Notes under the pieces: generated by a model
Told to the model about the DNA's origin: nothing
Seen by the model: only the letters and a program-made list of their open reading frames with translations
The model's database searches: none
Translations under genes and position numbers: made by a program
Virus record (IMG/VR): IMGVR_UViG_3300014204_013734
Span: 96,001 to 160,000 of that record
DNA from: a virus
Taxonomy: Duplodnaviria > Caudoviricetes
Direction: 5' to 3' (one strand)
DNA: 64,000 nucleotides
Shown: positions 1-64,000 of the stretch, piece by piece
How the letters are laid out: every line of letters starts with the position of its first letter
Numbering within the stretch: position 1 is the stretch's first letter

Positions 1-3000
1 AACCCCGGAAAGGTTACGAAGCGTCCGATTTCAACTACATGGCGGGAATGGTTGCCGGGGCCGTAATTGCCCCTCTACATGCCCTCCAGAAAATGATGGA
101 CAGAGAACGAGATGCAGGAAAGAAAGCTTTCCTGGAAGGACCTGACATGAAAAACGCGGACTGGCAACCTGGGAAAAAAGATGAAGAAGGCTGGGAAGAA
201 GGCAAACGCGTCCCCGACACCATCACGGAAGGGGAAGGTAGTTTGATCCCGAACATCCTTGAACGGTTAGCAATGCTGTCCGATGACTGTAACGGTTTGC
301 TGGCCCGTTACGAAGAAGGCGTTCCGGCCGACCCGACGGAAAATATGTCACCCGAAGATGCCAAGGAATGGAAGGAACAGAACGAAGAACATCGGGACGA
401 ATTCAAAAAGGCCTTTGACGCCCTTACCAGCAAGGCACAGGAAACGAACACCTTGGCTACTCTTGAACGTCTTGCCGCCAACAAAAAGGCCAAGCATCGT
501 TCCTTGAGTGAAATTGCCGACGAAATCACTAGGGATTGGCCTTCCGTGAACTACGCCGCCAAACCGTATCTCAATGCAATGAAAAGTCTTGACCAAATTA
601 CGGAAACCTACGGGCAGGACCCCGCGAAATCCATTGTTGCTTATTTTCTGTCCAACGCTACCTCGTGGAAAGGCGAAAAAGCAAAAGCCGTCAAAGCTGA
701 GCTAAAAGCTCTCCTGAAAATACGGGGAGCGTCGGAAAAGACAGCTTCCGACAACACCGTTTCAATTATGAAGGAATTTCTTGACCGGGATTGGCCGGCG
801 GTTGAAAAGGCAGTATCCGAATTGGATTGGGACGAAGCGACAAACACCTTGAAACGTATCCAAGGTGTTTACCATCATTCCGCCGGACTGGACAAAAATG
901 TCATAGACATGCCGGATACGAAAGCATTAGGGCACATCCGAATGCTCTTGGATGCGTTTAAGACGAAAGACGAAAAAAAGATCAAAGAGGACATGGAAAG
1001 CCGCGGTCCGGTGATGGTCAAGGAATGGAAGACCAATATCGGGAAATACAAATGGCAAGCAGGATTCCAAGGAGAAGAAATCAAAAACCTGTCCGAACAG
1101 ATCGTTTCAAAGGCATTTTCCGAACTTGGCGGACCGAGCGGTTGGGATGTCAGACAGGTATTTTTCAAGGAAGGTCCTGAAGCAGCCCAAAAAGCGTTTG
1201 ATGCAGCTCTTATTCGCCGTCACAAGACTTCTTCCGAAGAAGATGGTGAAGATGGAATTGAAGCCCGATATGAAGAAGGGGTTCCCGCTGACCCAACGGA
1301 AAACATGACGGAAGAAGATGCCAAGGAATGGCGTCTTCAAAACCTGAAGAACAAAGACAACTTCAAGGGATCCTGCGTATCGGAAGAAACAGACGGTTTG
1401 CTGGCCAAGTACGAAGAAGGCAAACCTGCTGATCCAACGGAAAACATGACGGAAGAAGATGCCAAAAAGTGGAAAAACAACACGGAAGAACACAAGAATG
1501 AGTTCAAGAAGGCTGATTCTCACAACGTCATTTTTGTGTCTGTACGGGCCAAAAAATTGGAAGGGCTTGCTCCTGGTACAGAAATCAAATTCCCTTGGAA
1601 ATCGGAAGAAGGGGATCTTGTAACATGCTGCCCTTACGCAGCAGTTGTTCAAAGATCGGAATCTTCATACCTAACCCGCATTCAGGAACGACAAGGTTTC
1701 CAAGCGGAAATGATCCTTACCCTCCAACAACCACCTAACCTGAAGAATCCCGCCAGGTGGGAAAAAGACCTGAAAGCATATCTTGACAGTCCTGGGGGAA
1801 CCGTTGAAATCCTGAAGAATCCCAGGAAACCCACAATTTGGTCCAACGGGATTCCCATTACCAAAACCGCTGCCACGGGTCCGGACAAGACCGGACGTAA
1901 CTGGATGGAATTCAACGAAAAGTTGGGGCACTGGTGGGCATGGAACGGAAAACCAGGACCAACATTCAGGGTGACTGAGGTCCCTGGGCCAGGCATTCCC
2001 TTGTATCAGTTGCAAATGTTGATGGACGATGGGAAACTGTTGAAATTCCGCCATCAGGAAAAAGATCTGAAAAGGGCATTCACCTTTGCATCCGCTTTCT
2101 GGAAAACGCTCAACAGCGAAGCAGGGGGCTTGATAGATCTGACTCATCATTGGTCGCGCATTGCTTCCAACGAAGTTGAATCCCGGTTTGAAGAAGGCGT
2201 CCCGGCCGATCCAACCGAAAATATGACCCCCGAGGACAAGGCCAAGTGGGAAGCCATGAACGAAGAACACCGAGACGAATTCAAAACTTCGTCCAGGAAC
2301 GACACCCAAAAGAAAACCTTGTCCGACACCAGGACTTTACCTGAACGCAAGCCACAGGGGCAGCCAAGCACCTTTTCAACTGATTCCCGGCTAGCTTCTG
2401 CAGCCCCGTCTGGTCTCTATGGTCACACGAAACGAATTCAGGCGGATTGTGAAGCCTGCATCGGGAAACTTTCCAGGGCAGCGGAACGCATCGCCAAAAA
2501 TGCTTGGCGGAAAGACGAACAGGTTGCTCCGTTCCTTGCCGCCCACGCAAAACGGTCGGGAAGCCTTCCTGCCGCCATCTTGGTCGACGCTATGACAGGG
2601 ATCGGGCCGAAAATTGCGTCCAACACGGAAACCGTCATTGCTTCCGGGACTGCCCCTTCCGGTCTGAGTGATTCACAGGAAAGATTGTGGAACAGTTTGT
2701 GGCAGTTGGCCGTGAATGACGGGAATGCCTTCAGGGCAAATGAACCGAAAAAAGCGGTTAACGATTCCTATGATGCCTTCCGAGATCAAGCGGTTGAAGA
2801 CCTGATCTGGGAATTACGGGATGATTTCAAGAAGATACGTGCTCCGATGGTGCAAGCGTTACAGAACCATTGGCTGAAATCAAAGAAGGCGGGTTCAGCG
2901 AAGCACGGTCTTTACGGATTCAGCCTCAAGACTTCAACCCTAGGTATGTCTTCCTGCACAGCGATCCATGAACTGGCCGGCCATCTTGCAGCGGACCTGC

Positions 3001-3167: not shown

Positions 3168-3179
3168 AAGCACTTGGAT

Positions 3180-3220: not shown

Positions 3221-3235
3221 TATTTGGGAAACCGT

Positions 3236-6290: not shown

Positions 6291-6293
6291 ACT

Positions 6294-7673: not shown

Positions 7674-7675
7674 AA

Positions 7676-39234: not shown

Positions 39235-39235
39235 C

Positions 39236-39889
39236 ATGTCGGATTCTACAACGAAGGTCGCTACCCGTTGGTTGCTCGCCCATTATACCAAGACCGCTGG
39301 TGAAGTCCGATTCATCAAGGACAGGGGTGGTGACGAGAAGCAGTGGGGTTGGTCTCTGCAAGGGCCTTCGCAGCGGGAAATGCCCGCTGAATTTACGTTT
39401 GACCCCAGGAATCTGAAACCTTTGGCCCGGACACTGAGATCAGCCTTGGCCGCCTTGGGGCATACGCAGAGTGCCTACAACACGTTCACGAAGATCAAGT
39501 CCGCTACCGTGTCCCCTGACGGCAATCTTGGGGGAAAGGGATACATCCAGCGGATTACAGACATTCGGCGACAGTGCATGAACTGTTCAGAAGCGTTGTC
39601 GTCGGTTTGTGACACCCTTTATGATGAAATTCACGCCGCCCACTGGAATCCTACCATTGCAGAGCAGAGTCCACGTGAACGTGAAGAGGTCGTAGACATC
39701 ATGGAAGATGTGGACGATATTCGTCAGTCCCCCGAAAGCTGGGCGGAAGGCGAGGAAGAAGAAATGGACGAAGAAGGTGCTGGTGGGGAAGGTGGTTGGG
39801 AAGGGGAAGGGGAAGAAATGAAGACGGAAAAGATGGCTATGATTCACAGGGTAGCATTCCGTCATGCTATGGAACGGAGGATTTCATGA
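39236..39889 (+). CDS. Hypothetical (probable virion) protein tagged at both termini
   Basis: N-terminal KVATRW...KTAG, acidic stretch, C-terminal RVAFRH. Confidence 0.75.
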   Translation: MSDSTTKVATRWLLAHYTKTAGEVRFIKDRGGDEKQWGWSLQGPSQREMPAEFTFDPRNLKPLARTLRSALAALGHTQSAYNTFTKIKSATVSPDGNLGGKGYIQRITDIRRQCMNCSEALSSVCDTLYDEIHAAHWNPTIAEQSPREREEVVDIMEDVDDIRQSPESWAEGEEEEMDEEGAGGEGGWEGEGEEMKTEKMAMIHRVAFRHAMERRIS

Positions 39890-49700: not shown

Positions 49701-50070
49701 TGCAAGGATGGGGTTCGTTGAGGAAGACGATGAAGGGAATGTAGAACCTTTGGTTCCGCGTTTGTCCTTCACTCGTCTTGCTTTGCGTGATAATTCGGAC
49801 ACCTTTGACGCCTTGTTCAATCTCTACCAGAAGGGCAGCCTTGACATTGACATCATTCTGGATCTTCTCAACATAGATCCGGTAACAACCCGAGAAAAGC
49901 TGCAACGGGATGTGTTCACGTTGAATGATTCTTCGTTCAATGAAGTTTTACGGGGCATCTACCAGAAAGTCGGGGATCTTTTGGTAGAAGGTTCCGATGT
50001 TACGGAAAAGATTGCCGAAAACCTTGGACTGGTGTTCAAGAAAGTCAAGGAAGGCGGCGAACGTTTCTGA
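46792..50070 (+). CDS. Portal protein with intein (about 558 aa after splicing)
   Basis: Follows terL; YRFFYDNEPFVGQAIDLHTELPLSKI...DYHLIGEVY...GKSILQR/CLRTLVFRDK...AGLGVTESLLSGE pattern is typical of portals. Confidence 0.8.
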   Translation: MNQDEKVVKKIPIRKGIVTGRPNKVVTSAMRSKVAFPTSGGTITGSGGNFYSPELSTDFLELPQSINERWNYYRFFYDNEPFVGQAIDLHTELPLSKIRLVPPEAKNRDLAQQALTFCEKWSKNIRLLHRLIAIVHDYHLIGEVYVFAEDTSPDLPQDVRQEPLREITSEGEAIERWIDRPDADARAIDWLKRNYKGWSALRVLPPEQIHMTSFPFTDEKIIELVPDSKTKDIVEKADAGDLQAVRVVESMPQDIIQAIKEGKNIPLNTDPDAGSFVHYLARKRSDYDEHGKSILQRCLLPGTPIWIKRHGTIQQIAVEEVNDSTDLLLTHLGRFMPCKAGTRPVDEEITVLEIEGVEEPLKLTSDHEVLRVLEDGSEEWVAAGKLQIGDIVRESHVLLDGNPDGNPAIPYHFKNIDMVSWWSGRILDSIKRGRPGTDLLETERKVVVEAIHPDGNGIVVSFRHENDNRNRVKISPVLEKILSWAFSLEVPVVKTQAEVAVLAGVSERDVRMYVPRLRKEGLLKTEVRSLGRGKGQSVTWFPAVTGTLPPIITTLSSPIRNIAVDENFCWLLGAWFGDGFVWTEHETLLNVDCVGWSLHDQDVEAKVVELVDKYFGSVNVKRGCLVDKNTDSDDLRIEDPLLARWFMEEFGYTAQGKQMPEWLFHLPESYVLAFLRGLLDTDGWIGVDTAFQIGFGMDNKVLIDQMHLLCNRVGIKTHVGKNHKKERSWTRTWNTKKGVREKTYDYEAKTYPTLTCSRSEDVRRWAGEGSIKGSRVEWVDREPDNRRGPKMIGGWLVHRIASVLNTPYKGPVWSFDVEEDTSHFTSIITHNCLRTLVFRDKIRQAHTSIASRHMTPYRVIYAENMNDDQTEALRDQVDLALQDPDYSIITNFAVTWEEMGADQRLPDWSWVWDMTDRQLYAGLGVTESLLSGEGAYGGDRLHLEVINTRYMLLREILQDFVEHDLFRPMCARMGFVEEDDEGNVEPLVPRLSFTRLALRDNSDTFDALFNLYQKGSLDIDIILDLLNIDPVTTREKLQRDVFTLNDSSFNEVLRGIYQKVGDLLVEGSDVTEKIAENLGLVFKKVKEGGERF
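47683..49284 (+). mobile_element. Portal intein (534 aa, LAGLIDADG, extra HTH)
   Basis: Starts CLLPGT; TSDH; LGAWFGDG and LRGLLDTDG; VWSFDVEED; ends ITHN before Cys. Confidence 0.9.
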
Positions 50071-50142: not shown

Positions 50143-53100
50143 ATGCAGCAGACAGTTTCCAGCGCAAAAGACGGCAGAAAGACGGGGGACGGGTCCGGGG
50201 TCGGATTTTTCATTCCCCTTCCTCCTGATCTTGGGGCGCAGTTCCCTGACCTTGGGGATGAAGACCGCAGCAATCCGCATACGACATTTCTTTACGTTGG
50301 GGAAGTTCCTGAAGAACGAGAAGCCGAATTCCTGGAAGTGTCTGCCCGTGTCCTGGGGACGTTGGGCGGTCTTGTTCGGGGTTATCTTGATCACCTTGAC
50401 TATTTTACGCAGCCAGACAAGGACCGGAAGGTCGCTGTCATGGCGATTCGGTTTGACAAGGATCTTGCAGCACTTAGATGGAATCTACGCGATGCCCTTC
50501 TTGATGCCGGTTTTCAGGTAGCTGATGGATTCCCCCTTCTGTACAAACCGCATGCAACTATCCAATACATGGAAGGACTTGGTTCCGAATGGAAAGGTCA
50601 TGTCCCTTCCGGGTCATGGTCATTTGACAGGATGGAAGTTTGGGGTCTGCCGAAACTGCATTCCGTTTATTTTGGTGAATCCGTGGAAGGACGTGTAGCG
50701 TCCAGGTTCCTGGAATCCATGGAACACGGGGTTTCGGTTGCCTTGATGAAGTTCTTGTCGGATGTTGCCAAAAAAGCAGGCGTGTCAAAAAACACCTACG
50801 TAGTAGGCGGGGCCGTTCGTAATTTCATTTTGGGGGTGCCCGTCAAAGACGTGGATGTCGTGATAGATTCCATTGCTTCGGGCAAGGATTCCGCATGGTT
50901 CGCCAAAAAGGTCAAGGAAGCGATTCCCGTCCCAACCAGTTTCGTGACCAATCAGTACGGTGTTGCATTGCTGACGGTGAAGGGGGATTGGTTCGTTGAT
51001 GGGGCTAATCTGAATGGGGAAACCATAGAGATTGCCAACGCCCGGAAGGAATCCTATGGTGGGGAAGCGGGCCAAGGTTACAAACCCCATATGGTCGCTC
51101 CTGCGACCATAAAGGAAGATGTCATCAGGCGGGATTTCACTTTCAACACCCTCATGTGGCGTCTCCATGATCTATCTTCCGGTCCCGATGCGGCAGAAAT
51201 CCTGGATATAACCGAATGCGGATTGAAGGATCTGCAGGCGGGGGAAATGCGGTGCCCTTCCGATCCTGACAAAACTTTTTCGAATGATCCTTCCAGATTG
51301 ATACGGGCCATAAAATTTATTTTGAAATACGGATTCAAGGTTCCCCCGGAAGTGGAAGCTTCTATTCGCCGTAACGGTCTGAAGCTCAGAAACGTCCCTC
51401 CTGGTCACCTTAGCAACATGATCATTGAATTGTTCTACGAAGGTGGGTGGGGTCGGCGTGCTTTGGAAGAAATGGACAAGTTGGGACTCCTGGAAGTCAT
51501 CAAAGACATAGCTAGGACGGACAAACCTTTCAGGGAAGCCTTGTCCAATTGGGCAGACCGCAAGGCTGACATTTCTTTCCTGTTTGACCTGATTGACATC
51601 GGGATGCCGACCGGAAGGCGTTTGAACTTCCTGACACAACCGCAGAAGGACCGTCTCAGGGAAATAACCGTACAATGGCCTGCTGAGAAGTCCGACGAAT
51701 TTGTAAACCTGCTGGAACAGCCTGGGCGCATCAAGGGTCTTGCTTTCGGGGGATTGATCCAGGAACTTGGGCTTCAAGGACCAGGAATCAAGGCGTTGAC
51801 CGACACCGTTCGCCAACGGCTTCTTGACGATCCTGATTTGGTCAGAAATCCTGACAAGCTCAGGAGGTTGGTCGGGTTGGGGAAAACGGCCGGGATTGAC
51901 AAACCCTTGGACAAGGACTGGTTGATGGCCGTCCGACGGGGATGGTTGAAATTGATGAATCCTGCTATCCGTGATTACGGCGATGTGCTGAAAGCGTTTA
52001 ATGCTTTGGATGCCTTTGCCGAAAACTTGCAGGATCAGGTGCTTAATGTCAGGCGTGATCTTTTTACGAACGATGTCAGAACTGACAAGGTAATTGCCGG
52101 CATCAAGAGGCTTCGGGAAGCAATTTCGGATTCCAGATACCATGCGAAGTTTTGGTCCGAGTGGCTTGACGGGACATCCGTGGGTTTTCGGTTGGGGGAA
52201 GATCGGACCGCAGATGCCTTGAAGATGTTGGAATTGTACCGCACGAATTTTTCTGATGCTTCTGGAACTTCAGTGAAGGGGCGTAAAAGTCCCAGCAACC
52301 CTTGGGCGAATAGCCGACAGGTTCCGTTGACTTATATCCTGGACGCGGTTTTGAAGGGGCTTTACGAAATTGCCAAAAAGAATCTGGAAGTAGGGGAGTC
52401 CGGGGACATACCGGAATATGAATCGTTCTTTCGGGAATTTTCCCTGGGAGGCATGAAGATTCTTATCAGTGATCCGAAAACACATGGTAAGGCGATAGGT
52501 GCCTATGTCCGTCAGATTGGTAAGGCAAAGCATCTTTTGGAAGCGGCTGGATTCGCCAAGGATTGGCGTGGGTTGATGATGGTCCAGTCGTCTGATTGGC
52601 ATGTTTTGACTGACACGGAAAGGGAAATATATCGGCGCAGAGGTTATGACATTCAGGAAACTGCGGGGCAGTATAGAAGTGGATCCGATTCCATTGTCCT
52701 GACTTCCCCCCCGGATTGGTCTTTGGTATTGACAATCGTGCATGAGATCGGACACCGACATTGGTCCAAGTATTTGGATGTTTCCGACAGAAAACGTTTC
52801 GCGGACTGGATTGCCGAAGGTTTGGCTCCGGTCAGCGACTACGGGAAAACCAATCCGTCAGAAGCTTTTGCAGAGGTATTCGCTCATTATGTGAATCGAA
52901 AGAACATGACCAGAGACCAGTTGGAATCCTTCAAAGCAGTGGTCAATAAGACGGCGTCCGAAAAAAAGGTGTTGAAAAACAAAAAAGGCTGCTTGATTTT
53001 GGCTCGTGTAGGGGGTTTGAGTCCGGTTAGGCAGCGCAACGAAGCGGCGCCTGCCCGTAAAGGGTTGTGGGCCTTTCTATGGCCTTGGTTTGACACTTGG

Positions 53101-56100
53101 TTGCTTAGTGGCACGAATGCTAGGGGGTGGCTTGAGAATCAAGATCAAAAAGGGGGCACGCGGTTGGAGGATTTCAAGCGCGAAGGCTACCGGAAATTCA
53201 AACATTGCGGTTATGTGTGGACGCATTTTGATATTCCAGGAAAAGAAGTTTTGACTAAAGGTCATTGGAATTTGGTTCATTCCTCGGATCTGGCGCGGGA
53301 AATTCCTCGGATATACAAGAGCGAACTTAAAGCTTTACGGAAACAGTATTGGGAAGATTCTAAAACCCCTACTACCCCGGCCGGAGTTGAAGAACAGAAA
53401 CAGCAATCCCTTGAATTTGCGGAATATTGGATACGTCGTCAGGACTGGTCCGAAATGTGCGAGGTGTTTGTTGAACCCCATATGGCGGACAAGACGGCGG
53501 CATTCACTGAAAGCGACTTGGAAACTGCCACCAAGGAGTTTGAAGAAGTTGTACAGCGTCTTACTGACAAGAGGGCCCTTTTTGAAAAAGCCTTTGCAAA
53601 CGAAAACGTTGATGACCCAAGGTATTTGCGACACAGGAAAATTGGGCTCAAGGCATGGATGGAAAAACCTTGGGCCTGGTTGGTTTTTAACGGGAATAAG
53701 TTGTCAAGAATCGTGTTGGAACGGAAATCAGTTCCTTCTGGGCAGGGGAAGGCTTTGGAAATGGCGGCTCGGACTTTCATGTCAGCCAAGCGTTTTCCTG
53801 CAGATTTTGAAGGGTGGATGGCCAAGAATTCAAAGTATGTGGCTTTCCTTCTGAATGCCGCGAAAACTTGGGAAGACAAGAAAGAAGGGGGTTCAGAACT
53901 ATTCAAGATCGGTCCATTCACTGTCCACAATACCATCGGGGCGGCGGATGCCGATTTGGAAGGTGTCCGAAAGATGTTTGAAGCAGCAACATCTGCTGTC
54001 GGACGATTGGGCGGGGATTATTCCGATTTCAAGAAGGTTCTTTACGGAGATGTGCTTGTCGTTGCCCGGTTGAGTCAGCCTAAAGTGATGGCTTGGTATA
54101 CCCCCAATGAGGATGCTGTTTATGTCCGGCAGATGAAGACCGCCGGGATTGACGATGTCCACAATCTTATTCACGAATTGGCTCATCGGTTTTGGAGAAA
54201 GTTTGCGGACGCTAAATTGAAGGCGCGTTGGGTACAACGTGATGACATTGTGCGGTGGGGGGATGATTGGTTCAAGGGTTTGAAGTTGCCTGGGATAGGG
54301 GACACCCTTCCAATTATCTTGAACAAGCAAAAGTATCCTAAGATTGTTGATTTGGACGCCAAGGTTTACAAATTGGCGGTGCCAACGATTTTGGATCCTT
54401 ACAATACTGTTTCCATCCCTCGGACCAAGGTTTTGGAATGGGTTCGGGAAGATGCCAAGAAGGAACAGTTTCCTACCCCCTATGCCGCCAGAGGAGGGGT
54501 AGAAGAACACTTCTGCGAAGCCCTTGCCCTCAAGGCACTCGGTAAGCTCCAGAAGAATCACGAAGAAGCTCTTGATAGAGTGTTCAGCGGGGAACCTGAT
54601 CCGAAGGAGATTGCGTTTGTCAAGGATGTTCAGGAGGCCCTGCGGAAACAGAATCCGTCTGTTGTAGCGTTCCGTCATCTGAAAAAGGCTGGGTTTTTCA
54701 ATGTTGGGGATAAAATTTGGTTCGGCAAATATAAAAACAAAGCCGGGATTATAAAGGGCTTTTCACGGGACCCAAAAGGCAATCCGACCGTCATCATTTC
54801 CCCTGTACCCCAAGGACGGAAGCAAGACAAGGAATTTGGCTTGTACAAAATCTGGCATGCCGATCCTGCCAAAAAGGTTGCCGTCCGTTGGATTTTTGGT
54901 TCCCCTGTCAGGGAACCTTGGCAAATGACGTTTGATGAGTTTCGGCGTGAAGTCAAAACCCAAAGAATTGAATGGAAAGCTGTTCAGACGTTTGAAGATT
55001 TTTTGAAAACGAAGAAGGTTGATCCAAAAGAGCTGCCTTCCCTTGAGGAAGAAGCTGACGTTTTGGGGGGTTTGCTTTTCAGTCGTCCAAATATGACGCA
55101 ACATGAAAAAGGTCGTTTGAAAGGAATTGTCCACAAAAAAATGCTAAAGGATAAGCTTGTTAAGGAATGGAAAGACACCGTGGACAAGGTTGAAACCCAC
55201 ACTGATCTTGATTTATCTAGAAGTTCCGATGCTGCCTATTTGAAGGTCCAGCACAAACGGGCTATCAGGAAGGCATTATCTGAAGGGAATCCAGTTCCTT
55301 CCGAAGTTCTTGCAGAATATCCCGACATCAAAACCGGGATGCGTGTCGCCCAGGATGATAGATGGGATCGTCGGAAGCCAGAAGCGTTCCGAACCCTGAT
55401 TCCCGAAGGTATTTCTAAGAGAATTTACCAAGAACAGATCGGGGAAGTCGGGGGTTTCAAGGTGTGGTTGGTAGACGGCATCGTAATTCGTGACAAAATT
55501 GATATTGATTTCACGGCAGGAGGGAACCCGTCAAGGTACGGTTACATTCCTGCGGATGAAATTTGGTTGGAAAAGACTGGGGATTCCCCATTCAGGAATT
55601 TTGATTTGGCCGCTACCTTGATTCACGAACTTGTTGAATCTTGGGTGATGTCAAACTTGGGGTGGGATTACGACAGGGCTCACGACACGGCTTCCAAATT
55701 TGAAAAGGGGTTCAGGAAGCATCCCCGACTGGTGCCGGAGAACCGGATTCTTTTGATTGCGGAATTCTTGTACCGGAAATGGTTGGGGAGTTCCATGTCG
55801 GGTCGGGTTGCCGCCCGTTACAAGGACAAGAAGACCGTTAAAGATAAGAACGGCGACGACATGGTCGTTTACGAATACAGTGACCGACAGATCGCCAACA
55901 GGAATCGGGAAAAGGCGGAACGGGTTGAAAAGCTCCGCGGCAAGTTGGACAAGCTGGTTTCTCAGGTCAAGAAAGACCTGAAGTCTGACGATGAAAAAAC
56001 CCGCATGACCGCCTTGGCGGTTGGGTTAATTAATGACGTGTACGAGCGCGTTGGAAATCCAGGATCCGCCAAGGACGGTCATTTTGGGGTCACTGGTTGG

Positions 56101-59100
56101 CTTGTCAAGCATGTGTCCTTTTCCGATGGGAAGGCCCTTCTTAAATATGTTGGCAAGTCGGGGGTTGAACAGGACAAGGAAACATCGGACGCTGGTTTGG
56201 TGAAAGCGTTGAAGGATGCCGTCAAAGGCAAGAAGAAGGATGATCCGATCTTTGAATTTGATGGAGGTCGGATCAGTTCAGAAACGGTGAACGAATATCT
56301 GAAACCTTTTGACATCACGGCGAAGGATATCCGTGGACTTCACGCCAACAAAGAAACGCAAAAGGCGTTGAAGGCTATCCGGGCTAAGGGCGGAAAGCTT
56401 CCAGAGGATAAGAAAGAACGGGAAAAGAAGCTCAAGGAGGAATTCAAGAAAGCTGTGGAAGAAGCGGCGGAAATCGTTGGACATGAACCTACCACACTTA
56501 AAAATCTGTATTTGGTTCCAAATCTGTACGAGGCGTTTATTGAAGACGGGACGGTCAAGGAAAACCTAGCGAAACAGAAAACAGCGTCCGTTGCTGCGGT
56601 AGATTTGGAAGAACAATTGAAGCTGTTGTCTCCTTCAGACCGTCACCGGTACGATGAACGGTTGAAGGAGGATCAGGAATTTAGGACTAACCAGGCTGTT
56701 ATCTTTTTGGATCGTCGTGTTCCGAAAGATCAGGTTGTCCGTCTTGAAAAGGAACGTTATCAGAAAATTTACAGGTTGTTGAAGGAATCATATAAGAAAG
56801 CACTACGAGATGGAAAAGATGTTTGGGTGCGAGGTGTTCCACAACTTCTTCCCTTGTTTTACAAATATGCCGTTGAAGCTTTGTCCGCTGAATTTCCAGG
56901 ACTTTCTTTTTCCAAACCTGTTGGATTTCTGATGAAAGATCACCAGAAGCCCCTTCGTTTGTGGGATGAAGCTGAGTATATCCATGACTACGTGGAAAAG
57001 AACCTGGGGAAAATTCATCGTGCTACCAAGACGCACGGGGAAAGGGAAGACGAGGAAGTCGCCGAATTGGTTAAGCCCTTGCCTAAGAAAAACCCCCCCA
57101 GGAATGATCTCCGGAAGGAACGCATGGAAGAGAACGACGGAGATGTAGGAAACCAGGGGGCCGACGAAGATAAAGACATGTCCTTGAATTACAAGCGGGT
57201 TGCCAACCGTTGGATTGAAGGAACCCAGAAAAAGCTATCTCCTGATCAGGAAACGCTTTTGCGTTCTTTGTGGTACAACGGGGATGATGCTGCTTTGGCG
57301 ACGTTCTTGGATTGGCCACGTTCCAAAGTCAAAAGAATTGTAGACCAGTTGCAGAAACTTGGTCTTGTGATTGTAGATTCCGACGGGATCATACAAGAAA
57401 ACACAAAGACAAATAGGATTGCCAACCGTTGGTTTCATTCCAAAAAAGACCTCATCAACGTTCGGAGAAAGGAAGATGGCAAGGTCGTTCAAGTCACCGA
57501 AGAGACCTTGAAGGAATCCCCTGATGAATATGAAACCTTGGAAGAAGGGGAACCCGAACCCGAACCCAAACCCGAACCCAAACCTGAACCTGAAAAGAAA
57601 GTTTGGGAATCAGATATGGGTTTGGTCAAGGATGATCAAGGCAAGGTGACTGGAGTTGATAAAGGCGGTAATGCCTTCAAGGAAACAGCCAAGGAATACG
57701 GGAAGGACACTGTTGAACTGGTTCTTTTCCTGCGTGCCTTTGCGCAGGGGGCCAAGATCAAAATCCCCCCTGCCCTTGCGAAAACGAAAGCCTGGAAGGA
57801 AATCTCCGATTATCCGGTTGAAACCAATCCGGCCCTTGTCAAGGGACTTTTGGAAGCCAAAGATTCCCCCTACAAGGAAGTTTTGGATGCGTTTGACGCA
57901 GCCACATCAAAGGGGAAACCTTCAATCATTCCCGAAAAGAAAAAAGAAGTTGAAGCCCCGACGGTCCAGGAAGGTGAATCCAAACCTGTTCCCAAACCGG
58001 AACCCGTTCCGGCCGTTGAAGAACCCGATACATCTGAAAAGGACTTGGATGCCGTTGTTGGTATGCTGGAAGTTGATCCTGACATGCAGGATGCTTCAGC
58101 AAAAATCACCAAGCGTTTATCCGACCCTAAAACCAGAGAAGAAGCGGTACGGGCATACCGGGAAACCTTTGACGAAGTCATGAATGAATTGAAGAACCAA
58201 GGGGGGGAAGGATTTGATGTGTCGGAATCCATGGCTACCGACCTTGGGGATGCTTTAAAGAATCCTGCCGGAGGGCGTGACGGAAAAGATTTGGGTCGCG
58301 ATTTAGCCCTTCATTCCATCGCCAAGCGTTTGGCGGATCCTGCTAATTTGGACGGGGTTGGTCTTTCGGAAGAGCCTTTGGATGAAATGACCCTTATTGA
58401 TCGGGGTGATCGTGCCCTGGAATTTTATGTCAAGTTTCCCGCTAATTTCCGTCAGGAAGTTGCTCGCCAAATGGTGGATAGGATCAGGGAAGCTAAGGAA
58501 AAAGGCGGTCCGCAAATACAGGAACTTGAACGCATTACTGCGGGTTTGCAAGCTGCTGCAATCGTTCATGATGATTTCAAGGACAAGAGGAACAAATGGC
58601 CCCTTTCTATTTCCCGTCCCGCCCCTGTTTTTAATGGGATTGTGAAATCTCTTTATGAAAAAGGGGATACTCGGGTTGTTGCGTCTTTCGGTATCGGGGC
58701 TCAAGGATTAGCTACGCCGGAAGGTCGGGAAAAATTGCGGCAGGCATTGGATTCCCTTGATGAAGATGAATTGTTTGAAGCGTTGGGCGGGGAGAAGGGC
58801 GAATGGGGTTTGATGATCCGAAACCTTAAGAAAGGGGGTTTGAGGGAAAAGGACAAGGCATGGTATTTGAATTTCATGAAGGAAATGACTGTTGGTGAAG
58901 TTACGACAGGGAATACGGTAGTGATGCAGGCGGCTACGAACGCCCAGGAAGTGAAGGCAAAGGCGGATAAAGAAAGAGAACGTAACCGGGAAGTGAAGCC
59001 GACTTCAGCCCAGATGGAACCTTCCTGGTCGGACTTAATTGATCCTAAATCCGAAAACACCATCGGGGAAGCGGCGGACGCTGTTCACAAAGATGCCCAG

Positions 59101-59439
59101 GGACGATTGCGGAAATTGCTTGAAGCTCTTTCCAAATGCTTCTTCGCTAAAGACGAAGCAAAAGGATTCCGGGATTGTTGGAATTCTTATTCTCATGGGG
59201 TCGGTATAGCACGTGGTAGCACCGGGAAGTTGGCCTTCAGTTCGGAGGAAAACGACGCCCCTAAAGAAGAAGAGATTTTAGGGTTTTTCCAGCTTCAACA
59301 GGCGGGGGCTTACCTGGAATCGGCGGAACGGAAATTCGGTCCGTTGCCGGTCAATAATCCACTGAAAGTCCAAATCCAGACTGCAATTCGTTTGGATGAT
59401 CCTTCAGAGTTGGATAAACGGTACGTACAGAAGAAATGA
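50143..59439 (+). CDS. Giant polyvalent protein: 2H phosphoesterase, CCA-type nucleotidyltransferase, three zincin-like domains, topoisomerase IB, wHTH and unknown domains
   Basis: PHTT/PHAT; GGAVRN..KDVDV..EDVIRRDFTFN..DPSRLIRAIKF; HEIGH, HELAH, HELVE; ERVGN..VGKSG..KDIR..GH..LY. Confidence 0.88.
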   Translation: MQQTVSSAKDGRKTGDGSGVGFFIPLPPDLGAQFPDLGDEDRSNPHTTFLYVGEVPEEREAEFLEVSARVLGTLGGLVRGYLDHLDYFTQPDKDRKVAVMAIRFDKDLAALRWNLRDALLDAGFQVADGFPLLYKPHATIQYMEGLGSEWKGHVPSGSWSFDRMEVWGLPKLHSVYFGESVEGRVASRFLESMEHGVSVALMKFLSDVAKKAGVSKNTYVVGGAVRNFILGVPVKDVDVVIDSIASGKDSAWFAKKVKEAIPVPTSFVTNQYGVALLTVKGDWFVDGANLNGETIEIANARKESYGGEAGQGYKPHMVAPATIKEDVIRRDFTFNTLMWRLHDLSSGPDAAEILDITECGLKDLQAGEMRCPSDPDKTFSNDPSRLIRAIKFILKYGFKVPPEVEASIRRNGLKLRNVPPGHLSNMIIELFYEGGWGRRALEEMDKLGLLEVIKDIARTDKPFREALSNWADRKADISFLFDLIDIGMPTGRRLNFLTQPQKDRLREITVQWPAEKSDEFVNLLEQPGRIKGLAFGGLIQELGLQGPGIKALTDTVRQRLLDDPDLVRNPDKLRRLVGLGKTAGIDKPLDKDWLMAVRRGWLKLMNPAIRDYGDVLKAFNALDAFAENLQDQVLNVRRDLFTNDVRTDKVIAGIKRLREAISDSRYHAKFWSEWLDGTSVGFRLGEDRTADALKMLELYRTNFSDASGTSVKGRKSPSNPWANSRQVPLTYILDAVLKGLYEIAKKNLEVGESGDIPEYESFFREFSLGGMKILISDPKTHGKAIGAYVRQIGKAKHLLEAAGFAKDWRGLMMVQSSDWHVLTDTEREIYRRRGYDIQETAGQYRSGSDSIVLTSPPDWSLVLTIVHEIGHRHWSKYLDVSDRKRFADWIAEGLAPVSDYGKTNPSEAFAEVFAHYVNRKNMTRDQLESFKAVVNKTASEKKVLKNKKGCLILARVGGLSPVRQRNEAAPARKGLWAFLWPWFDTWLLSGTNARGWLENQDQKGGTRLEDFKREGYRKFKHCGYVWTHFDIPGKEVLTKGHWNLVHSSDLAREIPRIYKSELKALRKQYWEDSKTPTTPAGVEEQKQQSLEFAEYWIRRQDWSEMCEVFVEPHMADKTAAFTESDLETATKEFEEVVQRLTDKRALFEKAFANENVDDPRYLRHRKIGLKAWMEKPWAWLVFNGNKLSRIVLERKSVPSGQGKALEMAARTFMSAKRFPADFEGWMAKNSKYVAFLLNAAKTWEDKKEGGSELFKIGPFTVHNTIGAADADLEGVRKMFEAATSAVGRLGGDYSDFKKVLYGDVLVVARLSQPKVMAWYTPNEDAVYVRQMKTAGIDDVHNLIHELAHRFWRKFADAKLKARWVQRDDIVRWGDDWFKGLKLPGIGDTLPIILNKQKYPKIVDLDAKVYKLAVPTILDPYNTVSIPRTKVLEWVREDAKKEQFPTPYAARGGVEEHFCEALALKALGKLQKNHEEALDRVFSGEPDPKEIAFVKDVQEALRKQNPSVVAFRHLKKAGFFNVGDKIWFGKYKNKAGIIKGFSRDPKGNPTVIISPVPQGRKQDKEFGLYKIWHADPAKKVAVRWIFGSPVREPWQMTFDEFRREVKTQRIEWKAVQTFEDFLKTKKVDPKELPSLEEEADVLGGLLFSRPNMTQHEKGRLKGIVHKKMLKDKLVKEWKDTVDKVETHTDLDLSRSSDAAYLKVQHKRAIRKALSEGNPVPSEVLAEYPDIKTGMRVAQDDRWDRRKPEAFRTLIPEGISKRIYQEQIGEVGGFKVWLVDGIVIRDKIDIDFTAGGNPSRYGYIPADEIWLEKTGDSPFRNFDLAATLIHELVESWVMSNLGWDYDRAHDTASKFEKGFRKHPRLVPENRILLIAEFLYRKWLGSSMSGRVAARYKDKKTVKDKNGDDMVVYEYSDRQIANRNREKAERVEKLRGKLDKLVSQVKKDLKSDDEKTRMTALAVGLINDVYERVGNPGSAKDGHFGVTGWLVKHVSFSDGKALLKYVGKSGVEQDKETSDAGLVKALKDAVKGKKKDDPIFEFDGGRISSETVNEYLKPFDITAKDIRGLHANKETQKALKAIRAKGGKLPEDKKEREKKLKEEFKKAVEEAAEIVGHEPTTLKNLYLVPNLYEAFIEDGTVKENLAKQKTASVAAVDLEEQLKLLSPSDRHRYDERLKEDQEFRTNQAVIFLDRRVPKDQVVRLEKERYQKIYRLLKESYKKALRDGKDVWVRGVPQLLPLFYKYAVEALSAEFPGLSFSKPVGFLMKDHQKPLRLWDEAEYIHDYVEKNLGKIHRATKTHGEREDEEVAELVKPLPKKNPPRNDLRKERMEENDGDVGNQGADEDKDMSLNYKRVANRWIEGTQKKLSPDQETLLRSLWYNGDDAALATFLDWPRSKVKRIVDQLQKLGLVIVDSDGIIQENTKTNRIANRWFHSKKDLINVRRKEDGKVVQVTEETLKESPDEYETLEEGEPEPEPKPEPKPEPEKKVWESDMGLVKDDQGKVTGVDKGGNAFKETAKEYGKDTVELVLFLRAFAQGAKIKIPPALAKTKAWKEISDYPVETNPALVKGLLEAKDSPYKEVLDAFDAATSKGKPSIIPEKKKEVEAPTVQEGESKPVPKPEPVPAVEEPDTSEKDLDAVVGMLEVDPDMQDASAKITKRLSDPKTREEAVRAYRETFDEVMNELKNQGGEGFDVSESMATDLGDALKNPAGGRDGKDLGRDLALHSIAKRLADPANLDGVGLSEEPLDEMTLIDRGDRALEFYVKFPANFRQEVARQMVDRIREAKEKGGPQIQELERITAGLQAAAIVHDDFKDKRNKWPLSISRPAPVFNGIVKSLYEKGDTRVVASFGIGAQGLATPEGREKLRQALDSLDEDELFEALGGEKGEWGLMIRNLKKGGLREKDKAWYLNFMKEMTVGEVTTGNTVVMQAATNAQEVKAKADKERERNREVKPTSAQMEPSWSDLIDPKSENTIGEAADAVHKDAQGRLRKLLEALSKCFFAKDEAKGFRDCWNSYSHGVGIARGSTGKLAFSSEENDAPKEEEILGFFQLQQAGAYLESAERKFGPLPVNNPLKVQIQTAIRLDDPSELDKRYVQKK
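57550..57594 (+). repeat. Pro-Glu/Lys linker repeat (gaaccc/aaaccc hexamers)
   Basis: EPEPEPKPEPKPEPE. Confidence 0.85.
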
Positions 59440-59559: not shown

Positions 59560-60507
59560 ATGGCCAAGAAACTGACGACGAAGGGCGCGCTGTCCGTTAC
59601 AGGTAACCTGGATCGGCTCGCAAATTTGTTCCAGACGGAACACGAAACCTTGGGTGTAGAACCTAAGGTTGCTCAGGACTTCGCATATCGTTGCGATCTT
59701 CTCAGCGACGCCATTGAAAAGACTGCAGGTGTCGATCGGGTTGCGTTGACCGAACTGGATGTAGTCCAGGAATCCGGTTACGACCCTGAACAGATCGGCG
59801 AGGAAAAGGCCGGTCCTATGATTGGTGATGCCGACGAACCCTACATGAAGGGCAATTTCGGTCAGGAAGAGAAGCGGGAACTCCGTTATGACGTGGAACA
59901 GGGCAAGATTGGTCCTGACCGTATCGTCCCTGAACAGAAACCCCTCCAGCCCGGCAAACAGGCCGGATTTGAAGTTCTTGGCAAGCAAGCCGCCGTCAAC
60001 AGTTTGACCGGTTATGAAGGGGTTTTCCGTGATGCTTCCCTTCGGTTTGCCAACGCCGGGAATACCGATCTTGCCAAAGCGTTCTTGAAGCTTGCAAAGT
60101 CTACCATGGATGCCCAGGTTGGTATCCTTACGGGAACCCGTTCCGCAAGCAATATCAGTCGCCTCATGGAAGCAATCAAGCTTCTCGCTCCTCATGTCGC
60201 TGCCGTGAATCCGGCTTCCTACGGTGAAGTTTCCAAGATGGCAGACCTGGTTTTGAAGGTTGCCGGTGAAGACGAAGAAGAAGAAGACGACGACGACAAA
60301 GAAGACGCAGAACCGGAAGATTCCAAGGAAGCCAAAAAGGCTGGGAAGAAATCCGAAGACGAAGCCAAGGATGATGACAAGAAAGACGACAAAGACGAAG
60401 CCAAAGGCAAGGACGAGAAGAAGGATGAATCCAAAGAAGACTTCCTGAAGAAGATGCAGGAAGGCAAGGACAAGAAGTCCAGCCACGGTTTCAACCTGTC
60501 GGAATGA
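59560..60507 (+). CDS. Probable head scaffold/core protein with charged low-complexity tail
   Basis: Strong AGGAGGAG SD; lies between portal-linked polyprotein and protease; D/E/K-rich C-terminus; several KxA[GA] sites. Confidence 0.6.
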   Translation: MAKKLTTKGALSVTGNLDRLANLFQTEHETLGVEPKVAQDFAYRCDLLSDAIEKTAGVDRVALTELDVVQESGYDPEQIGEEKAGPMIGDADEPYMKGNFGQEEKRELRYDVEQGKIGPDRIVPEQKPLQPGKQAGFEVLGKQAAVNSLTGYEGVFRDASLRFANAGNTDLAKAFLKLAKSTMDAQVGILTGTRSASNISRLMEAIKLLAPHVAAVNPASYGEVSKMADLVLKVAGEDEEEEDDDDKEDAEPEDSKEAKKAGKKSEDEAKDDDKKDDKDEAKGKDEKKDESKEDFLKKMQEGKDKKSSHGFNLSE

Positions 60508-60511
60508 AGAA

Positions 60512-61090
60512 ATGACCCGCAAGAACGCGACATTGTCAGTTAACTACCAACAACGGGCGAAGCTATTTGCCGTAAACGATATTGTTTACCCGTTTTGGGG
60601 TTCCGCCGAAAAGACGGGACGTGTCGTGGCGGTTTACCCGGCAATTGGGATGGTTGATGTCGAATGGCCACACGGAAATGACCGTGTACCCGTTGAGGAC
60701 CTTCAGCAACTGAATCCCCACAGTCTGTTCCAACCTCCGTCCATCCCTGCCGGGGAAGATAGTATCCCCGGTGGGGCTGGGCAGGTTTCCGTATCCCCAG
60801 GACCAGTTAACAAAAATTCAGCTCTCCGTGTGGCGGCCGCTTTCATTAAGAAAGCCCTTTATTGGGCCGACAAAGACCGGCAGTACAAGGCCACGCAAGG
60901 GGAACTTGATGACAAGTGTTACCATTGCCCGAAGTGCGGGGAAGAACTGCGGAAGGCAATCTACAAACGTCGTGATGGCGCCAGTGTCCATCTTCTCGGT
61001 TGCGGAACATGCTTGTTCCTGATCAAAAAAGAAGACATCATTGGCGATCCTGAATATGCGGGTCCGAACATCGAAATAGAAGGTGTTTGA
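60512..61090 (+). CDS. Hypothetical head-module protein (SH3-like + zinc ribbon)
   Basis: GRVVAVYPAIGMVDVEWP; RVAAAF..KKA linker; CPKCG...CGTC. Confidence 0.75.
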   Translation: MTRKNATLSVNYQQRAKLFAVNDIVYPFWGSAEKTGRVVAVYPAIGMVDVEWPHGNDRVPVEDLQQLNPHSLFQPPSIPAGEDSIPGGAGQVSVSPGPVNKNSALRVAAAFIKKALYWADKDRQYKATQGELDDKCYHCPKCGEELRKAIYKRRDGASVHLLGCGTCLFLIKKEDIIGDPEYAGPNIEIEGV

Positions 61091-61092
61091 CC

Positions 61093-64000
61093 ATGGCATT
61101 TTTGCGTTACAGTAACGCCCGGGTTGTTTCCCCCCACGTGACTCATGTGCAATGGGGGAAAATTAGGACGGCTGGCCTTGTTACTAAGGTTGGTGGCCAG
61201 TTGGACGAAAATCTTGTCGATCGGGCCAGTGAATTGTTCGACAAACAATTCAACCCCAACGACTTTCTTCTGACCCACGCCACTATCATTGCCAGCGTTG
61301 ACACGTACAAACCGGCCGGGGATATGGGGAAGACAGGTTCCTTCTTGATGGATGGATTCCGGGTCAACCGCAAATATGCGGATTATAGAATTACCCAAGA
61401 GACTCAAAAATACATCAACAGCAATTGCCTTGTTTCTGGGACGCCCATTGTGATGGCAGATGGAACAGCAAAATCAATTGAAGATGTTGTTGTAGGGGAT
61501 GATGTTATCACCCATATGGGACGGATCAGAAAAGTCACAGAAACTTTTTGTCACGAAGTTCATGGAAACTTGTATGAAATCAAAGTATATGGTTCTAACG
61601 AACGTCTGCATGTGACTAAGGACCATCCTTTTTTTGTTTTTCGTCCAAATAAACAATGTGCTGAGTGTGGAAGCCCCTTAAAAAGATCTTTGCAATGTAT
61701 TTCGCAACTGCTTGGGAAGCATTACTGTTCCAAGGAATGCTATTACAAGAAAAGGGTCACAAACAAAGAACTTCTTAAAAAGAAGCATGGGGTTTTCGTT
61801 CCCGTACATGATTTGCAGGTAGGGGATTTTGCAGCAGTTCCTGTAGTTTCAGAAGAAATTCCAGTTAATTTGACATTAGGGCAGGCTCGTTTGATTGGCC
61901 TTTTTCTTGCGGAGGGTTATTACGAATTAGATAGCCGGCACGATAATGAAAAAGTTGGGGCTATGTGGGCGTTTCATGAAAAAGAAACAGAAACATTAGC
62001 CCATACTGTTTGTTCTTTGATGAAATCAGAATTTGATGTGGATTGTGTCATTCGTCATTGCACTGATACTAAAGGTATTATGGTAACGACAAAAGTCAAC
62101 CGCCAAGCTGCGGCTTTCTTTTCCCGATGGGTTCTTGGAGAAGATTCTACTAGTAAATATCTTTGCGCGGATTTGTTGAGGGCTCAGAAACCCATTCAGA
62201 TGGAAATAATGCGTGGCTGGTTTGATGGGGATGGTTCGGCTTTTAGTACCGGAACTGAAGAAATTCCCATAAGGGATTTTCGGATGACCGGATGCACATC
62301 ATCTCGGAAAATGGTTTCCCAACTGCAAATAATTCTGCATCGTCTTGGTATTTCACCTCGGTTAGCCTATGTTCTTAGTGAAGGTCGCCAACGAACGGTT
62401 ATTGATGGTCTTGTTAAGGTGATACCTGATCCAACAAAAATTCAATACAGTTGGGTTTTGTCTTGTGGCGCTGGATGGATATCTGAATTGGTAGAAACAA
62501 CCCGATTTGAAGAATCTTATAATGAAGTCATGTCTATTTTAGGGGGGGTTCAAGAAGTTCCAGATCTTAGGTTTCTGAATGGTTTTTGTATTAGGATGAT
62601 AACTTCAATAGAACCATATCCTTATCAAGGATTTGTTTATAACATTGAAACAGAAGAAGATCATTCTTACATTGCAGGTGGAATTGCCGTACATAATAGC
62701 GATAGTTGGTCCCGTGAAGTGCTTTTGAAGGCGTATCCAACGTTCATTGGCGGGCACAATTTCTGTTTTGCACCGGGTACTAGGGTTCTCTTGGAAAATG
62801 GCATCTATAAAGCCATTGAAGAAATACGTGTTGGCGACAAAGTTGTTACCCACAAAGGTGTGTTGCAGGAAGTAACCCACAAATTTGAACGCCAATTCCT
62901 GGGGAATCTTCAGGTTATTTGTGTGGATGGGTTTGAACATCCCTTGCGTGTTACTGGAAACCATCCTTTTTTGGTGATGGAAAACCAAACTGGAAATACC
63001 TGGATTCCAGCAGATAAACTGCAAGTTGGAACCCTCTTGGCAGGGACCAGTTCGGAAATAGGTGCTGTCAATTATCGTGTCCTATCCAATGTTGAAGTTT
63101 CTTACGAAGGTCTTGTGTACAATCTTGAAGTTTGTGATGATAATTCCTACATCGTGGAACCTGGTGTTGCAGTTCATAATTGCGAGCACGTCCAGGTTGA
63201 ATCTCTGAGCAAGGGTCGCATCATTGATGCAGTTGCCCGTGACATCGGGGATTCGGTCTACGTTGACATCCTCATTGCCACTGACCGCAGACACAAGGAT
63301 CTCATTGAATCCATTGAAAATGGCAAGACGAATACACTGAGTATGGGATGTTCAGTGGACATGACTACATGTACTAAATGTGGCCACGTGGCCGCTGACG
63401 AGACCACTCTTTGTAACCATATAAAATACGAAAAAGGCAATACCTTTTTTGACGAGCAAGGACGGTCACATCGTATCTGCGAAATTTGCGGCCACCAGTC
63501 TATTGATCCGCACGGAGGGGTTCAGTTCATTGAAGCTTCGTGGGTTGCCCAACCGGCATTCACTGGAGCTGTGATGAGGAACATCATTCAGCCGACCGAA
63601 GATACCGTTCGTTTGGCGCAGCACATTCTCAATACCCCTCCGCCGCAATGGACCGAAGATTCCCGTCTGAAAGCCGCTAGGCATGAGGTTGTTGGGTCTA
63701 CAGGGACGGACGGCAACGGCAACGGCAACGGAGAAACGGTTGTAGTAGGTTCCTCAAAATTCCGTACGGCAGACATGTCTTCCGGCGGACGGCATTTCAC
63801 TGTTACGGCTGCCGAAATGGATCCTTTCATGGCAGGTTGGAACGAAGAGGATTCTTCAGGTACGGAACCGGAAAAACCACCTGTCCAGCCAACCCCAGCG
63901 GATCCTTTGACGCAGGTTGAAGACGATTTGGAAAAGCACCTTGTAGACAAGGTCGTCAAACGTGTCAGGGATCGTCTAAAAGACCAGGCTGTTGAAGAAA
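61093..64000 (+). CDS. Prohead (capsid maturation) serine protease with two inteins; runs off the window
   Basis: Open frame from ATG 61093 to the end. Spliced extein reads YINSN-SDSWSREVLLKAYPTFIGGHNF-CEH...KGRIIDA...LSMGC...CTKCG...FIEASWVAQPAF, an HK97/assemblin-type pattern. Confidence 0.85.
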   Translation, partial: MAFLRYSNARVVSPHVTHVQWGKIRTAGLVTKVGGQLDENLVDRASELFDKQFNPNDFLLTHATIIASVDTYKPAGDMGKTGSFLMDGFRVNRKYADYRITQETQKYINSNCLVSGTPIVMADGTAKSIEDVVVGDDVITHMGRIRKVTETFCHEVHGNLYEIKVYGSNERLHVTKDHPFFVFRPNKQCAECGSPLKRSLQCISQLLGKHYCSKECYYKKRVTNKELLKKKHGVFVPVHDLQVGDFAAVPVVSEEIPVNLTLGQARLIGLFLAEGYYELDSRHDNEKVGAMWAFHEKETETLAHTVCSLMKSEFDVDCVIRHCTDTKGIMVTTKVNRQAAAFFSRWVLGEDSTSKYLCADLLRAQKPIQMEIMRGWFDGDGSAFSTGTEEIPIRDFRMTGCTSSRKMVSQLQIILHRLGISPRLAYVLSEGRQRTVIDGLVKVIPDPTKIQYSWVLSCGAGWISELVETTRFEESYNEVMSILGGVQEVPDLRFLNGFCIRMITSIEPYPYQGFVYNIETEEDHSYIAGGIAVHNSDSWSREVLLKAYPTFIGGHNFCFAPGTRVLLENGIYKAIEEIRVGDKVVTHKGVLQEVTHKFERQFLGNLQVICVDGFEHPLRVTGNHPFLVMENQTGNTWIPADKLQVGTLLAGTSSEIGAVNYRVLSNVEVSYEGLVYNLEVCDDNSYIVEPGVAVHNCEHVQVESLSKGRIIDAVARDIGDSVYVDILIATDRRHKDLIESIENGKTNTLSMGCSVDMTTCTKCGHVAADETTLCNHIKYEKGNTFFDEQGRSHRICEICGHQSIDPHGGVQFIEASWVAQPAFTGAVMRNIIQPTEDTVRLAQHILNTPPPQWTEDSRLKAARHEVVGSTGTDGNGNGNGETVVVGSSKFRTADMSSGGRHFTVTAAEMDPFMAGWNEEDSSGTEPEKPPVQPTPADPLTQVEDDLEKHLVDKVVKRVRDRLKDQAVEE
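61426..62697 (+). mobile_element. Protease intein 1 (424 aa, LAGLIDADG, zinc-finger insert)
   Basis: Starts CLVSGT; TKDHPF; CAECG..YCSKEC; IGLFLAEG and MRGWFDGDG; ends IAVHN before Ser. Confidence 0.9.
62764..63180 (+). mobile_element. Protease intein 2 (139-aa mini-intein, no endonuclease)
   Basis: Starts CFAPGT; TGNHPF; VYNLEV; ends VAVHN before Cys. Confidence 0.92.

Follow-up and report, generated by a model that had tools for sequence, protein, structure and literature searches.

Bases 96,001–160,000 of a single 381,280-bp contig from an uncultured phage (IMG/VR record IMGVR_UViG_3300014204_013734; this stretch of 64,000 nucleotides (nt) is hereafter the window) carry a head gene module that includes a prohead protease, scaffold proteins and a giant enzyme-carrying protein. 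We find that a short motif, Lys/Arg-x-Ala followed by a small residue, recurs on both sides of the catalytic core of the protease, in the scaffold proteins and at joints between modules of the giant protein. We propose that this motif, here in the narrow forms K-T/K-A-[SAG] and R-V-A-[SA], is the substrate signal of the phage's capsid-maturation protease, a reading to which we give a probability of about 60%. The cut would fall after the Ala, because the motif is analogous to that of assemblin, the herpesvirus capsid protease, and the next residue is confined to Ser, Ala or Gly. A first-pass annotation of the window had already read [KR]-x-A-[SAG] linkers as prohead-protease sites that divide polyproteins into separate enzymes, and every motif instance that it quoted is present at its position, including RVAQ at 55342.

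The genes of the contig lie nearly all on the + strand, as do the motif sites and motif-bearing proteins of the window; positions below are window positions unless stated otherwise. The nearest public genomes are LR745208, from an uncultured 485-kb phage (terminase 62% identical), and Tunturiibacter phage Tunturi 5 (terminase 30%). The capsid protein, encoded just past the window end, is 85% identical to that of LR745208, 47% to that of Tunturi 5 and 38% to gp27 of Bacillus phage G; from its 481 relatives in IMG/VR we kept 80 loci, each at least 82% identical.

The prohead protease and its flanking motifs

The protease open reading frame (ORF; 1,114 amino acids (aa), 61087–64431, the window ending at 64000) lies in the head module between the genes for the portal and the major capsid protein. 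It is interrupted by two inteins (aa 114–537, nt 61426–62697, and aa 560–698, nt 62764–63180) that leave a middle extein of 22 aa between them. Downstream of the second intein are the catalytic His701, in a CEH motif (nt 63187), and Ser752, in an LSMG motif (nt 63340), the latter being the codon that the first-pass annotation had singled out as the catalytic serine. The equivalent residues of an intein-free relative, L037 (H135 and S186), are invariant in 26 sequences. An AlphaFold model of L037 built from this 26-sequence alignment (predicted local distance difference test (pLDDT) score 65–83 in the core) places the core, residues 55–268, closest to T4 gp21 (5jbl; Z 8.5, root-mean-square deviation 2.8 Å over 125 aa), the next matches being about 25 entries for herpesvirus proteases with Z of 5–7.6, from varicella-zoster virus, herpes simplex virus 2, Epstein–Barr virus, human cytomegalovirus, Kaposi's sarcoma-associated herpesvirus and pseudorabies virus. 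Foldseek alone gave a weak top match with the protease model (E 0.036), and PHROG 18299, 'head maturation protease', matches the protease at E 1.2e-9. Pfam returned no protease match at E ≤ 0.1 for the C-extein or for the intein-free LR745208 protease, and a sequence search of the PDB with the protease returned none. Judged by the model, the protease ORF encodes an enzyme with Ser and His as catalytic residues and with the fold shared by T4 gp21 and the herpesvirus assemblins. The assemblin-type fold assumed by the first-pass annotation is thus matched by the model, and its further assignment to the HK97-type class (Peptidase_S78) finds no Pfam profile match.

Two motif positions bracket this core. 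The N-terminal one is RTAG at aa 27 (61165–61176), which belongs to a family logo W-x-x-[VI]-R-x-A-[SAG]; across 26 relatives its Arg is present in 100%, its Ala in 96% and a following Ser, Ala or Gly in 100%, after which the alignment breaks into gaps and a hypervariable linker. The second lies past the core, where the family has K-A-A-[SA], this protease has KAAR (aa 862, 63670–63681), and a hypervariable disordered stretch opens. Both positions fall at order-to-disorder borders of the L037 model. The first-pass annotation had named RTAG together with RTAD (aa 893, 63763–63774); the former is conserved across the family, and the latter is an unconserved instance within the hypervariable stretch, the conserved post-core site being K-A-A-[SA].

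The flanking motifs extend well beyond close relatives. Searching 1.84 billion representative proteins with a profile recovered 2,128 family members, and we counted the motif in the best 150. Among these, 82% of the 118 complete N-termini carry [KR].A[SAG] within aa 18–52, compared with 13% after shuffling and 2–5% in control windows of the core; the post-core motif is present in 65% against 15%. In more distant family members the position of the site shifts and the motif persists, which argues for a short linear motif under selection rather than a structural element.

Two cultured phages show the same pattern. The proteases of phage G (gp19) and Tunturi 5 (gp331) are homologous to that of the window, with 33–40% identity in the core, and have K-x-A-[SAG] on both sides of the core: KTAA33 and KVAS265 in gp331, and four sites around the core in gp19 (4 against 0.7 expected). 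Neighbouring head proteins are also enriched. Relative to composition, Tunturi 5 has 14 sites against 3.3 in its 'DNA ejection protein', 9 against 2.3 in the scaffold and 7 against 2.5 in the portal, with no enrichment in its terminase, DNA polymerase, methylase or sheath; gp7 of phage G has 8 against 1.9. In contrast to the window protease, gp19 and gp331 are only 287–300 aa long, without inteins or the C-terminal helical domain, and the post-portal proteins of both phages are small. We found no published cleavage sites for either protease.

The window protease also carries an insertion directly after LSMG (aa 753–825, 63343–63560) with invariant Cys and His residues (C.....C..CGH...C... and CGH) in all 26 relatives, a sequence that suggests zinc binding within a prohead protease.

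The motif in scaffold and cargo proteins

The acidic scaffold, encoded by a 530-aa ORF past the window end, keeps two sites across relatives: [RK]-x-A-S, about 16 aa into the protein, and [KR]-x-A-S-x-RPQPRK, about 48 aa before the C terminus, where an acidic hypervariable region gives way to a conserved tail. At this C-terminal site, R-V-A-S of our phage aligns with K-T-A-S of its relatives. Sites at which a conserved Ala precedes Ser or some other small residue thus stand on both sides of the protease core and towards the scaffold end, as in assemblin substrates. The upstream scaffold-like protein (59560–60507) is the protein of the proteome most enriched in the loose motif [KR].A[SAG], with seven instances against 1.2 expected. 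Its KTAG (aa 54, 59719–59730) corresponds to E-[KR]-x-A-G in relatives, followed by a linker of variable length, and its KQAG and KQAA (aa 133 and 142, 59956–59994) correspond to G-[KVI]-Q-A-[SAG]. Both patterns, the second near aa 135, are conserved. All five sites that the first-pass annotation listed in this protein are present; two of them, KVAG and KKAG of the acidic tail, are probably not sites. At its C terminus the protein has KKSS-HGFNLSE (60472–60504; KKA[SH]-HGF.L in relatives). This tail, KK[AS][SH]-HGF[ND]L.[AE], also ends the giant proteins of relatives L075 and L069, which suggests a common C-terminal address. In the capsid protein, GRAKLAAS was considered as a further site and is uninformative, the whole N-arm being invariant.

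The giant post-portal protein (3,098 aa, 50143–59439) comprises a weak 2H match, a CCA-type nucleotidyltransferase (PolyA_pol head domain, 5.7e-16), two zincin-like HExxH regions (ATLF-like zincin, 1e-4), a topoisomerase IB (TopIB; Topoisom_I, 6.3e-26), a conserved tail module and a conserved C-terminal domain. It thus joins several unrelated enzymatic domains and a zincin-like peptidase in one giant phage protein, as polyvalent proteins do. In LR745208 the same domains are separate genes, with the TopIB gene directly after the portal and the second HExxH module homologous to separate genes, and in the IMG/VR relatives the post-portal protein is another mix of the same modules, in which homology breaks at the motif. 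A megablast search of GenBank phages with the giant gene gave no match, and PHROGs likewise gave none for the majority of segments of the giant protein and for further ORFs rich in the motif (39796–42318, 37348–38373 and others). Among the other genomes of the survey, none has a stretch resembling the window.

Along the giant protein, the motif follows this modular architecture at several points. KKAG at aa 210 (50770–50781) lies 7 aa upstream of the nucleotidyltransferase domain, and RVASRF at aa 184 coincides with a module border seen in relatives L102 and L105. KTAG at aa 581 (51883–51894) is at the end of the CCA-enzyme module, the homology of relatives stopping at aa 567–577. KTAS at aa 936 (52948–52959) is just past the last helix of the first zincin, where LR745208 has KLAS a few residues off, and KTAA at aa 1117 (53491–53502) marks the start of the second zincin module, to which relative L039 is homologous from aa 1115. 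KKAG at aa 1514 (54682–54693) directly follows VVAFRHL at a module border (1512–1519). The TopIB module is bounded on both sides. It starts with R-V-A-A-[KR]-[YF] (RVAA, aa 1888, 55804–55815), upstream of which the sequence is unrelated in every relative, and relative L100 has KTAA in the same column; it ends with KTAS (aa 2146, 56578–56589), which in relatives reads K-[KTQ]-[AG]-[SAGT] and is followed by complete divergence into unrelated sequence. A structural model of residues 1860–2380 contains a confident TopIB domain, with RVAA 1888 in the low-confidence lead-in just before the first strand, and at KTAS 2146 the confidence drops from about 79 to below 50. A further KTAG (aa 1332, 54136–54147), absent from the list in the first-pass annotation, is unconserved and lies within a zincin domain, 10 aa upstream of its IHELAHR.

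A conserved tail module of 65 aa follows (aa 2291–2357, 57013–57213; ATKT..KPPRxDLR..LSLNYKRVA). It is usually preceded by [KR]-V, and its conservation stops right after KR[VI]A (here RVAN, nt 57199). This charged module, more fully ATKT.GE+EDEE..LV+P.PK.KPPRxDLR...DLSLNYKRVA, occurs once in the post-portal protein of each relative, forms the C terminus of the TopIB protein in LR745208 and is predicted to be disordered; it may anchor or target the giant protein in the head.

Counts within this genome give a mixed picture, and the comparison with relatives carries more weight. KTA[SAG] occurs 18 times in the roughly 119,000 residues of crude ORF calls; the giant protein accounts for five of these and the first ORF of the window for three. 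Against 5,000 composition-preserving shuffles, the five in the giant protein compare with 0.20 expected, and K[TK]A[SAG] occurs seven times against 0.67, a count that no shuffle (0/5,000) reached. Only four of these seven fall 8 aa or less from a module border as defined by homology (P 0.033). Among 29 post-portal proteins, the motif is found near unique homology junctions in 22 of 109 cases against 8.1 expected and in 38 of 117 against 10.6, counts that cannot be treated as independent, since several proteins share homologous junctions. An initial count, taken over all homology ends, unique or not, showed no comparable excess of the control patterns [DE].A[SAGT] and [KR].L[SAGT]; the control A.[KR] was also raised at starts.

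A second cargo-like protein of modular build is encoded by the first ORF (1,647 aa), which starts 1,776 nt upstream of the window, so that only its C-terminal 1,054 aa (1..3167) lie within it. All seven linker sites that the first-pass annotation assigned to it are present: KTAS (738–749), KTAA (1863), RIAS (2157), RLAS (2388–2399), KIAS (2610–2621), KKAG (2883–2894) and KTAS (3114). Comparison with the LR745208 homologue places three of them, RLAS, KIAS and KKAG, at borders; the other four are candidates. RLAS directly precedes the first of two SGLYG domains, where LR745208 has KTAA, and KIAS and KKAG form the left and right borders of an 88-aa insert absent from the LR745208 homologue, which has a single KTAG at the junction. 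The loose motif is enriched in this protein (11 against 5.1 expected, P 0.012). The protein also contains four repeats of about 36 aa, ARYEEGVPADPTENMT, at window positions of roughly 300, 1260, 1401 and 2181 (aa 693, 1013, 1060 and 1320), with the pattern [AS][RK][YF]EEG.PADPTENMT.ED..W....EH+.EFK, shared with the LR745208 homologue; an excess of the tripeptides NMT, ENM, ADP and PTE is due to this repeat.

A related sequence, the RVAxRW tag, had been described in the first-pass annotation as often preceding the sites by a few residues. This does not hold as a rule: only KKAG or KKAS directly after the tag, and a candidate leader near the N terminus of ORF 39161–39889, where KVATRW is followed 7 aa later by KTAG (39254–39304), show the arrangement, and no tag precedes the KTA sites at aa 581, 936, 1117 and 2146. 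In orf192, RVAA lies within a conserved folded region and is probably not a site, and the IKKA of orf192 and the KKAG after VAFRH look like parts of the tag helix or of a folded domain. The general form [KR]-[VI]-A-x-R-[WFY], often followed by L-[KR]-[KR]-A, recurs at N termini, at C termini and inside unrelated proteins (window 4546, 39254, 54874 and 57196, besides 10 or more other proteins of the genome), and RVAxRW may be a separate docking tag. However, R-V-A-[SA] shares a column with K-T-A-[SA] both at the TopIB start and at the scaffold C-terminal site, and at least part of the tag is therefore the same motif with extra downstream residues.

Neighbouring genes and inserted elements

The head genes run in the order terminase (44353–46233), portal (46792–50070), giant protein, scaffold-like protein, orf192 (60512–61090) and protease, followed past the window end by the acidic scaffold, p232 (a 232-aa protein) and the 311-aa capsid protein. 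The portal is 1,092 aa long, compared with 564 aa in LR745208; the homologous parts are aa 2–299 and 828–1092, between which about 528 aa are inserted. The insert shows weak matches to an endonuclease and to a reductase family that bears inteins, and is thus probably an intein itself. The gene after the capsid gene (L007:6905–9622, past the window) is a 905-aa ORF with LAGLIDADG and HNH endonuclease matches, adding to the inteins and homing elements that are unusually numerous in this head module. The acidic scaffold (genome 160314–161906, L007:3314–4906) contains one EF-hand-like loop, DTDKDGIIARCDL (Pfam EF-hand_6 4.7e-5, below cut-off), a sequence feature that hints at calcium binding by a phage scaffold.

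Proposed processing and alternative explanations

In the mechanism that we propose, both inteins would splice out and the protease would enter the prohead together with the scaffold and cargo proteins. It would free its own core by cutting one site on each side, cut the acidic scaffold near both ends, detaching it from its capsid-binding tail, and trim the leaders and tails of head proteins. The 3,098-aa and 1,647-aa proteins would be cut at their module joints, leaving separate enzymes (CCA-adding enzyme, zincins and TopIB) in the head to be ejected with the DNA.

Parts of this scheme have precedents. Herpesvirus assemblin cuts at (V/L/I)-x-A↓S, and T4 follows the rule L/I-x-E. The assemblin system (pUL26 and pUL26.5) has release (R) and maturation (M) sites (PMC4498786), and the resemblance to the present system lies in the protease fold, in presumed sites of Ala followed by Ser or a small residue, and in their placement bracketing the core and ending the scaffold. 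Here, in contrast, Lys or Arg rather than Val, Leu or Ile stands three residues before the presumed cut, an extra conserved site lies N-terminal to the core, protease and scaffolds are separate genes, and candidate sites also occur in enzyme-carrying cargo proteins. In T4 and in phiKZ and SPN3US, the prohead protease processes itself, the scaffold and ejected head-internal proteins, as we propose here; the best structural match of our protease is T4 gp21, and phiKZ gp175 and SPN3US gp245 process ejection proteins (PMC10052503, PMC9026906). Unlike the cargo proposed here, theirs consists of single proteins with N-terminal propeptides, not of enzyme chains joined at the site. A capsid-targeting leader of the T4 type with a cut after Glu was also considered and does not fit, the conserved sites ending in Ala and a small residue. 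Polyvalent proteins (Iyer et al. 2017, PMC5512222) resemble the giant protein in being giant chains of unrelated enzymes with zincin-like peptidase domains, shuffled among relatives and presumed to be delivered with the DNA. Iyer et al. propose processing by embedded zincins and define no linker motif, whereas the motif here is shared with the capsid protease and scaffolds, which points to the prohead protease. Packaging of the giant protein in the virion and its delivery to the host would be supported by its gene position and by the motifs that it shares with head proteins.

Besides the non-independence of the junction counts, several observations weigh against the motif being a signal for the prohead protease. 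The loose motif, the form named in the first-pass annotation, is at chance level in the giant protein (9 against 8.1 expected, P 0.42). KTAG 1332 is not conserved in two LR745208 homologues and is probably not a site. The post-core site of the window protease itself has Arg, not Ser, Ala or Gly, after the Ala, and RTAD could stand in for this deviant KAAR. Residues other than small ones also follow the Ala in R-V-A-x-R-W, which is therefore perhaps a different signal. The T4-type and phiKZ-type proteases that have been studied cut after Glu (AXE in SPN3US, PMC10052503). Finally, we found no cleavage in this clade in the literature, in which the phage G multi-omics study used a trypsin-only search and reports nothing on processing, and the Tunturi paper has no virion proteomics.

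One alternative is that the motif is never cut and serves as a docking signal, for the scaffold, the shell interior or the portal, or simply ends a helix before a linker, with the giant protein packaged whole. K-x-A-G is a common helix end before a linker, the loose motif is at chance level in the giant protein, and RVAxRW, found in at least 15 proteins at N-terminal, C-terminal and internal positions, behaves like a portable tag. The 3,500-aa virion RNA polymerase of N4, moreover, is packaged unprocessed (PMC5512222). Nevertheless, the N-terminal site of the protease lies in predicted disorder and not at a helix end, the motif stands on both sides of the catalytic core like the self-release sites of related proteases (PMC4498786), a residue after Ala restricted to Ser, Ala or Gly suits a cut bond better than a docking surface, and K[TK]A[SAG] is absent from multidomain proteins outside the head, for example a 2,308-aa ORF. 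We consider this explanation unlikely. Still less probable, in our judgement, is a true cleavage signal read by another protease, either the embedded zincins or a host enzyme: the giant protein does have two zincin-like HExxH regions, and zincin domains have been proposed to process polyvalent proteins (PMC5512222), but the best-conserved sites are in the prohead protease and scaffolds, across more than 2,000 protein clusters, and LR745208 has a post-portal protein without a detected zincin and yet keeps the sites in its scaffold-like protein and protease. Chance, in the form of a degenerate four-residue motif in Lys- and Ala-rich proteins, could account for the loose-motif count in the giant protein, and KTA on its own ranks only second among enriched tripeptides (P 5e-5, uncorrected). 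It is contradicted for the conserved sites by the excess of K[TK]A[SAG], by fixed columns kept in 26 to 44 relatives, by the frequency of 82% against 13% in representative proteases and by the repetition of the pattern in phages G and Tunturi 5. As a general explanation it is thus very improbable, although it still holds for individual unconserved instances.

A broader reading of the protease signal, which we hold tentatively and would put somewhat short of an even bet, concerns a very large branch of prohead proteases with the T4 gp21 fold: more than 2,000 protein clusters at 50% identity, phages G and Tunturi 5 among them. This branch would have given up the cut after Glu and adopted the herpesvirus-like rule Lys/Arg-x-Ala↓Ser. 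In huge phages the rule would serve a polyprotein strategy, in which enzymes such as TopIB, the CCA-adding enzyme and zincins are loaded as one chain, cut apart in the head and exchanged between phages through recombination at the joints that encode the sites. Prohead-protease processing of head-internal proteins (in T4 and in phiKZ and SPN3US) and giant multi-enzyme polyvalent proteins were known already; what would be new is an assemblin-like signal in a very large protease clade, employed also where the modules of cargo chains are joined. A literature search found no paper describing a Lys/Arg-x-Ala code.

The two cultured phages, G and Tunturi 5, make the rule testable by ordinary virion mass spectrometry. 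If it is true, the mature ends of head, scaffold and ejected proteins would become predictable in this clade of huge phages, which is frequent in metagenomes and has hardly been studied in the laboratory. Cargo proteins would be recognizable by sequence alone, and each multi-enzyme head protein could be viewed as a group of injected enzymes that act separately. The substrate rule, in addition to the fold, would then link the capsid proteases of phages and herpesviruses.

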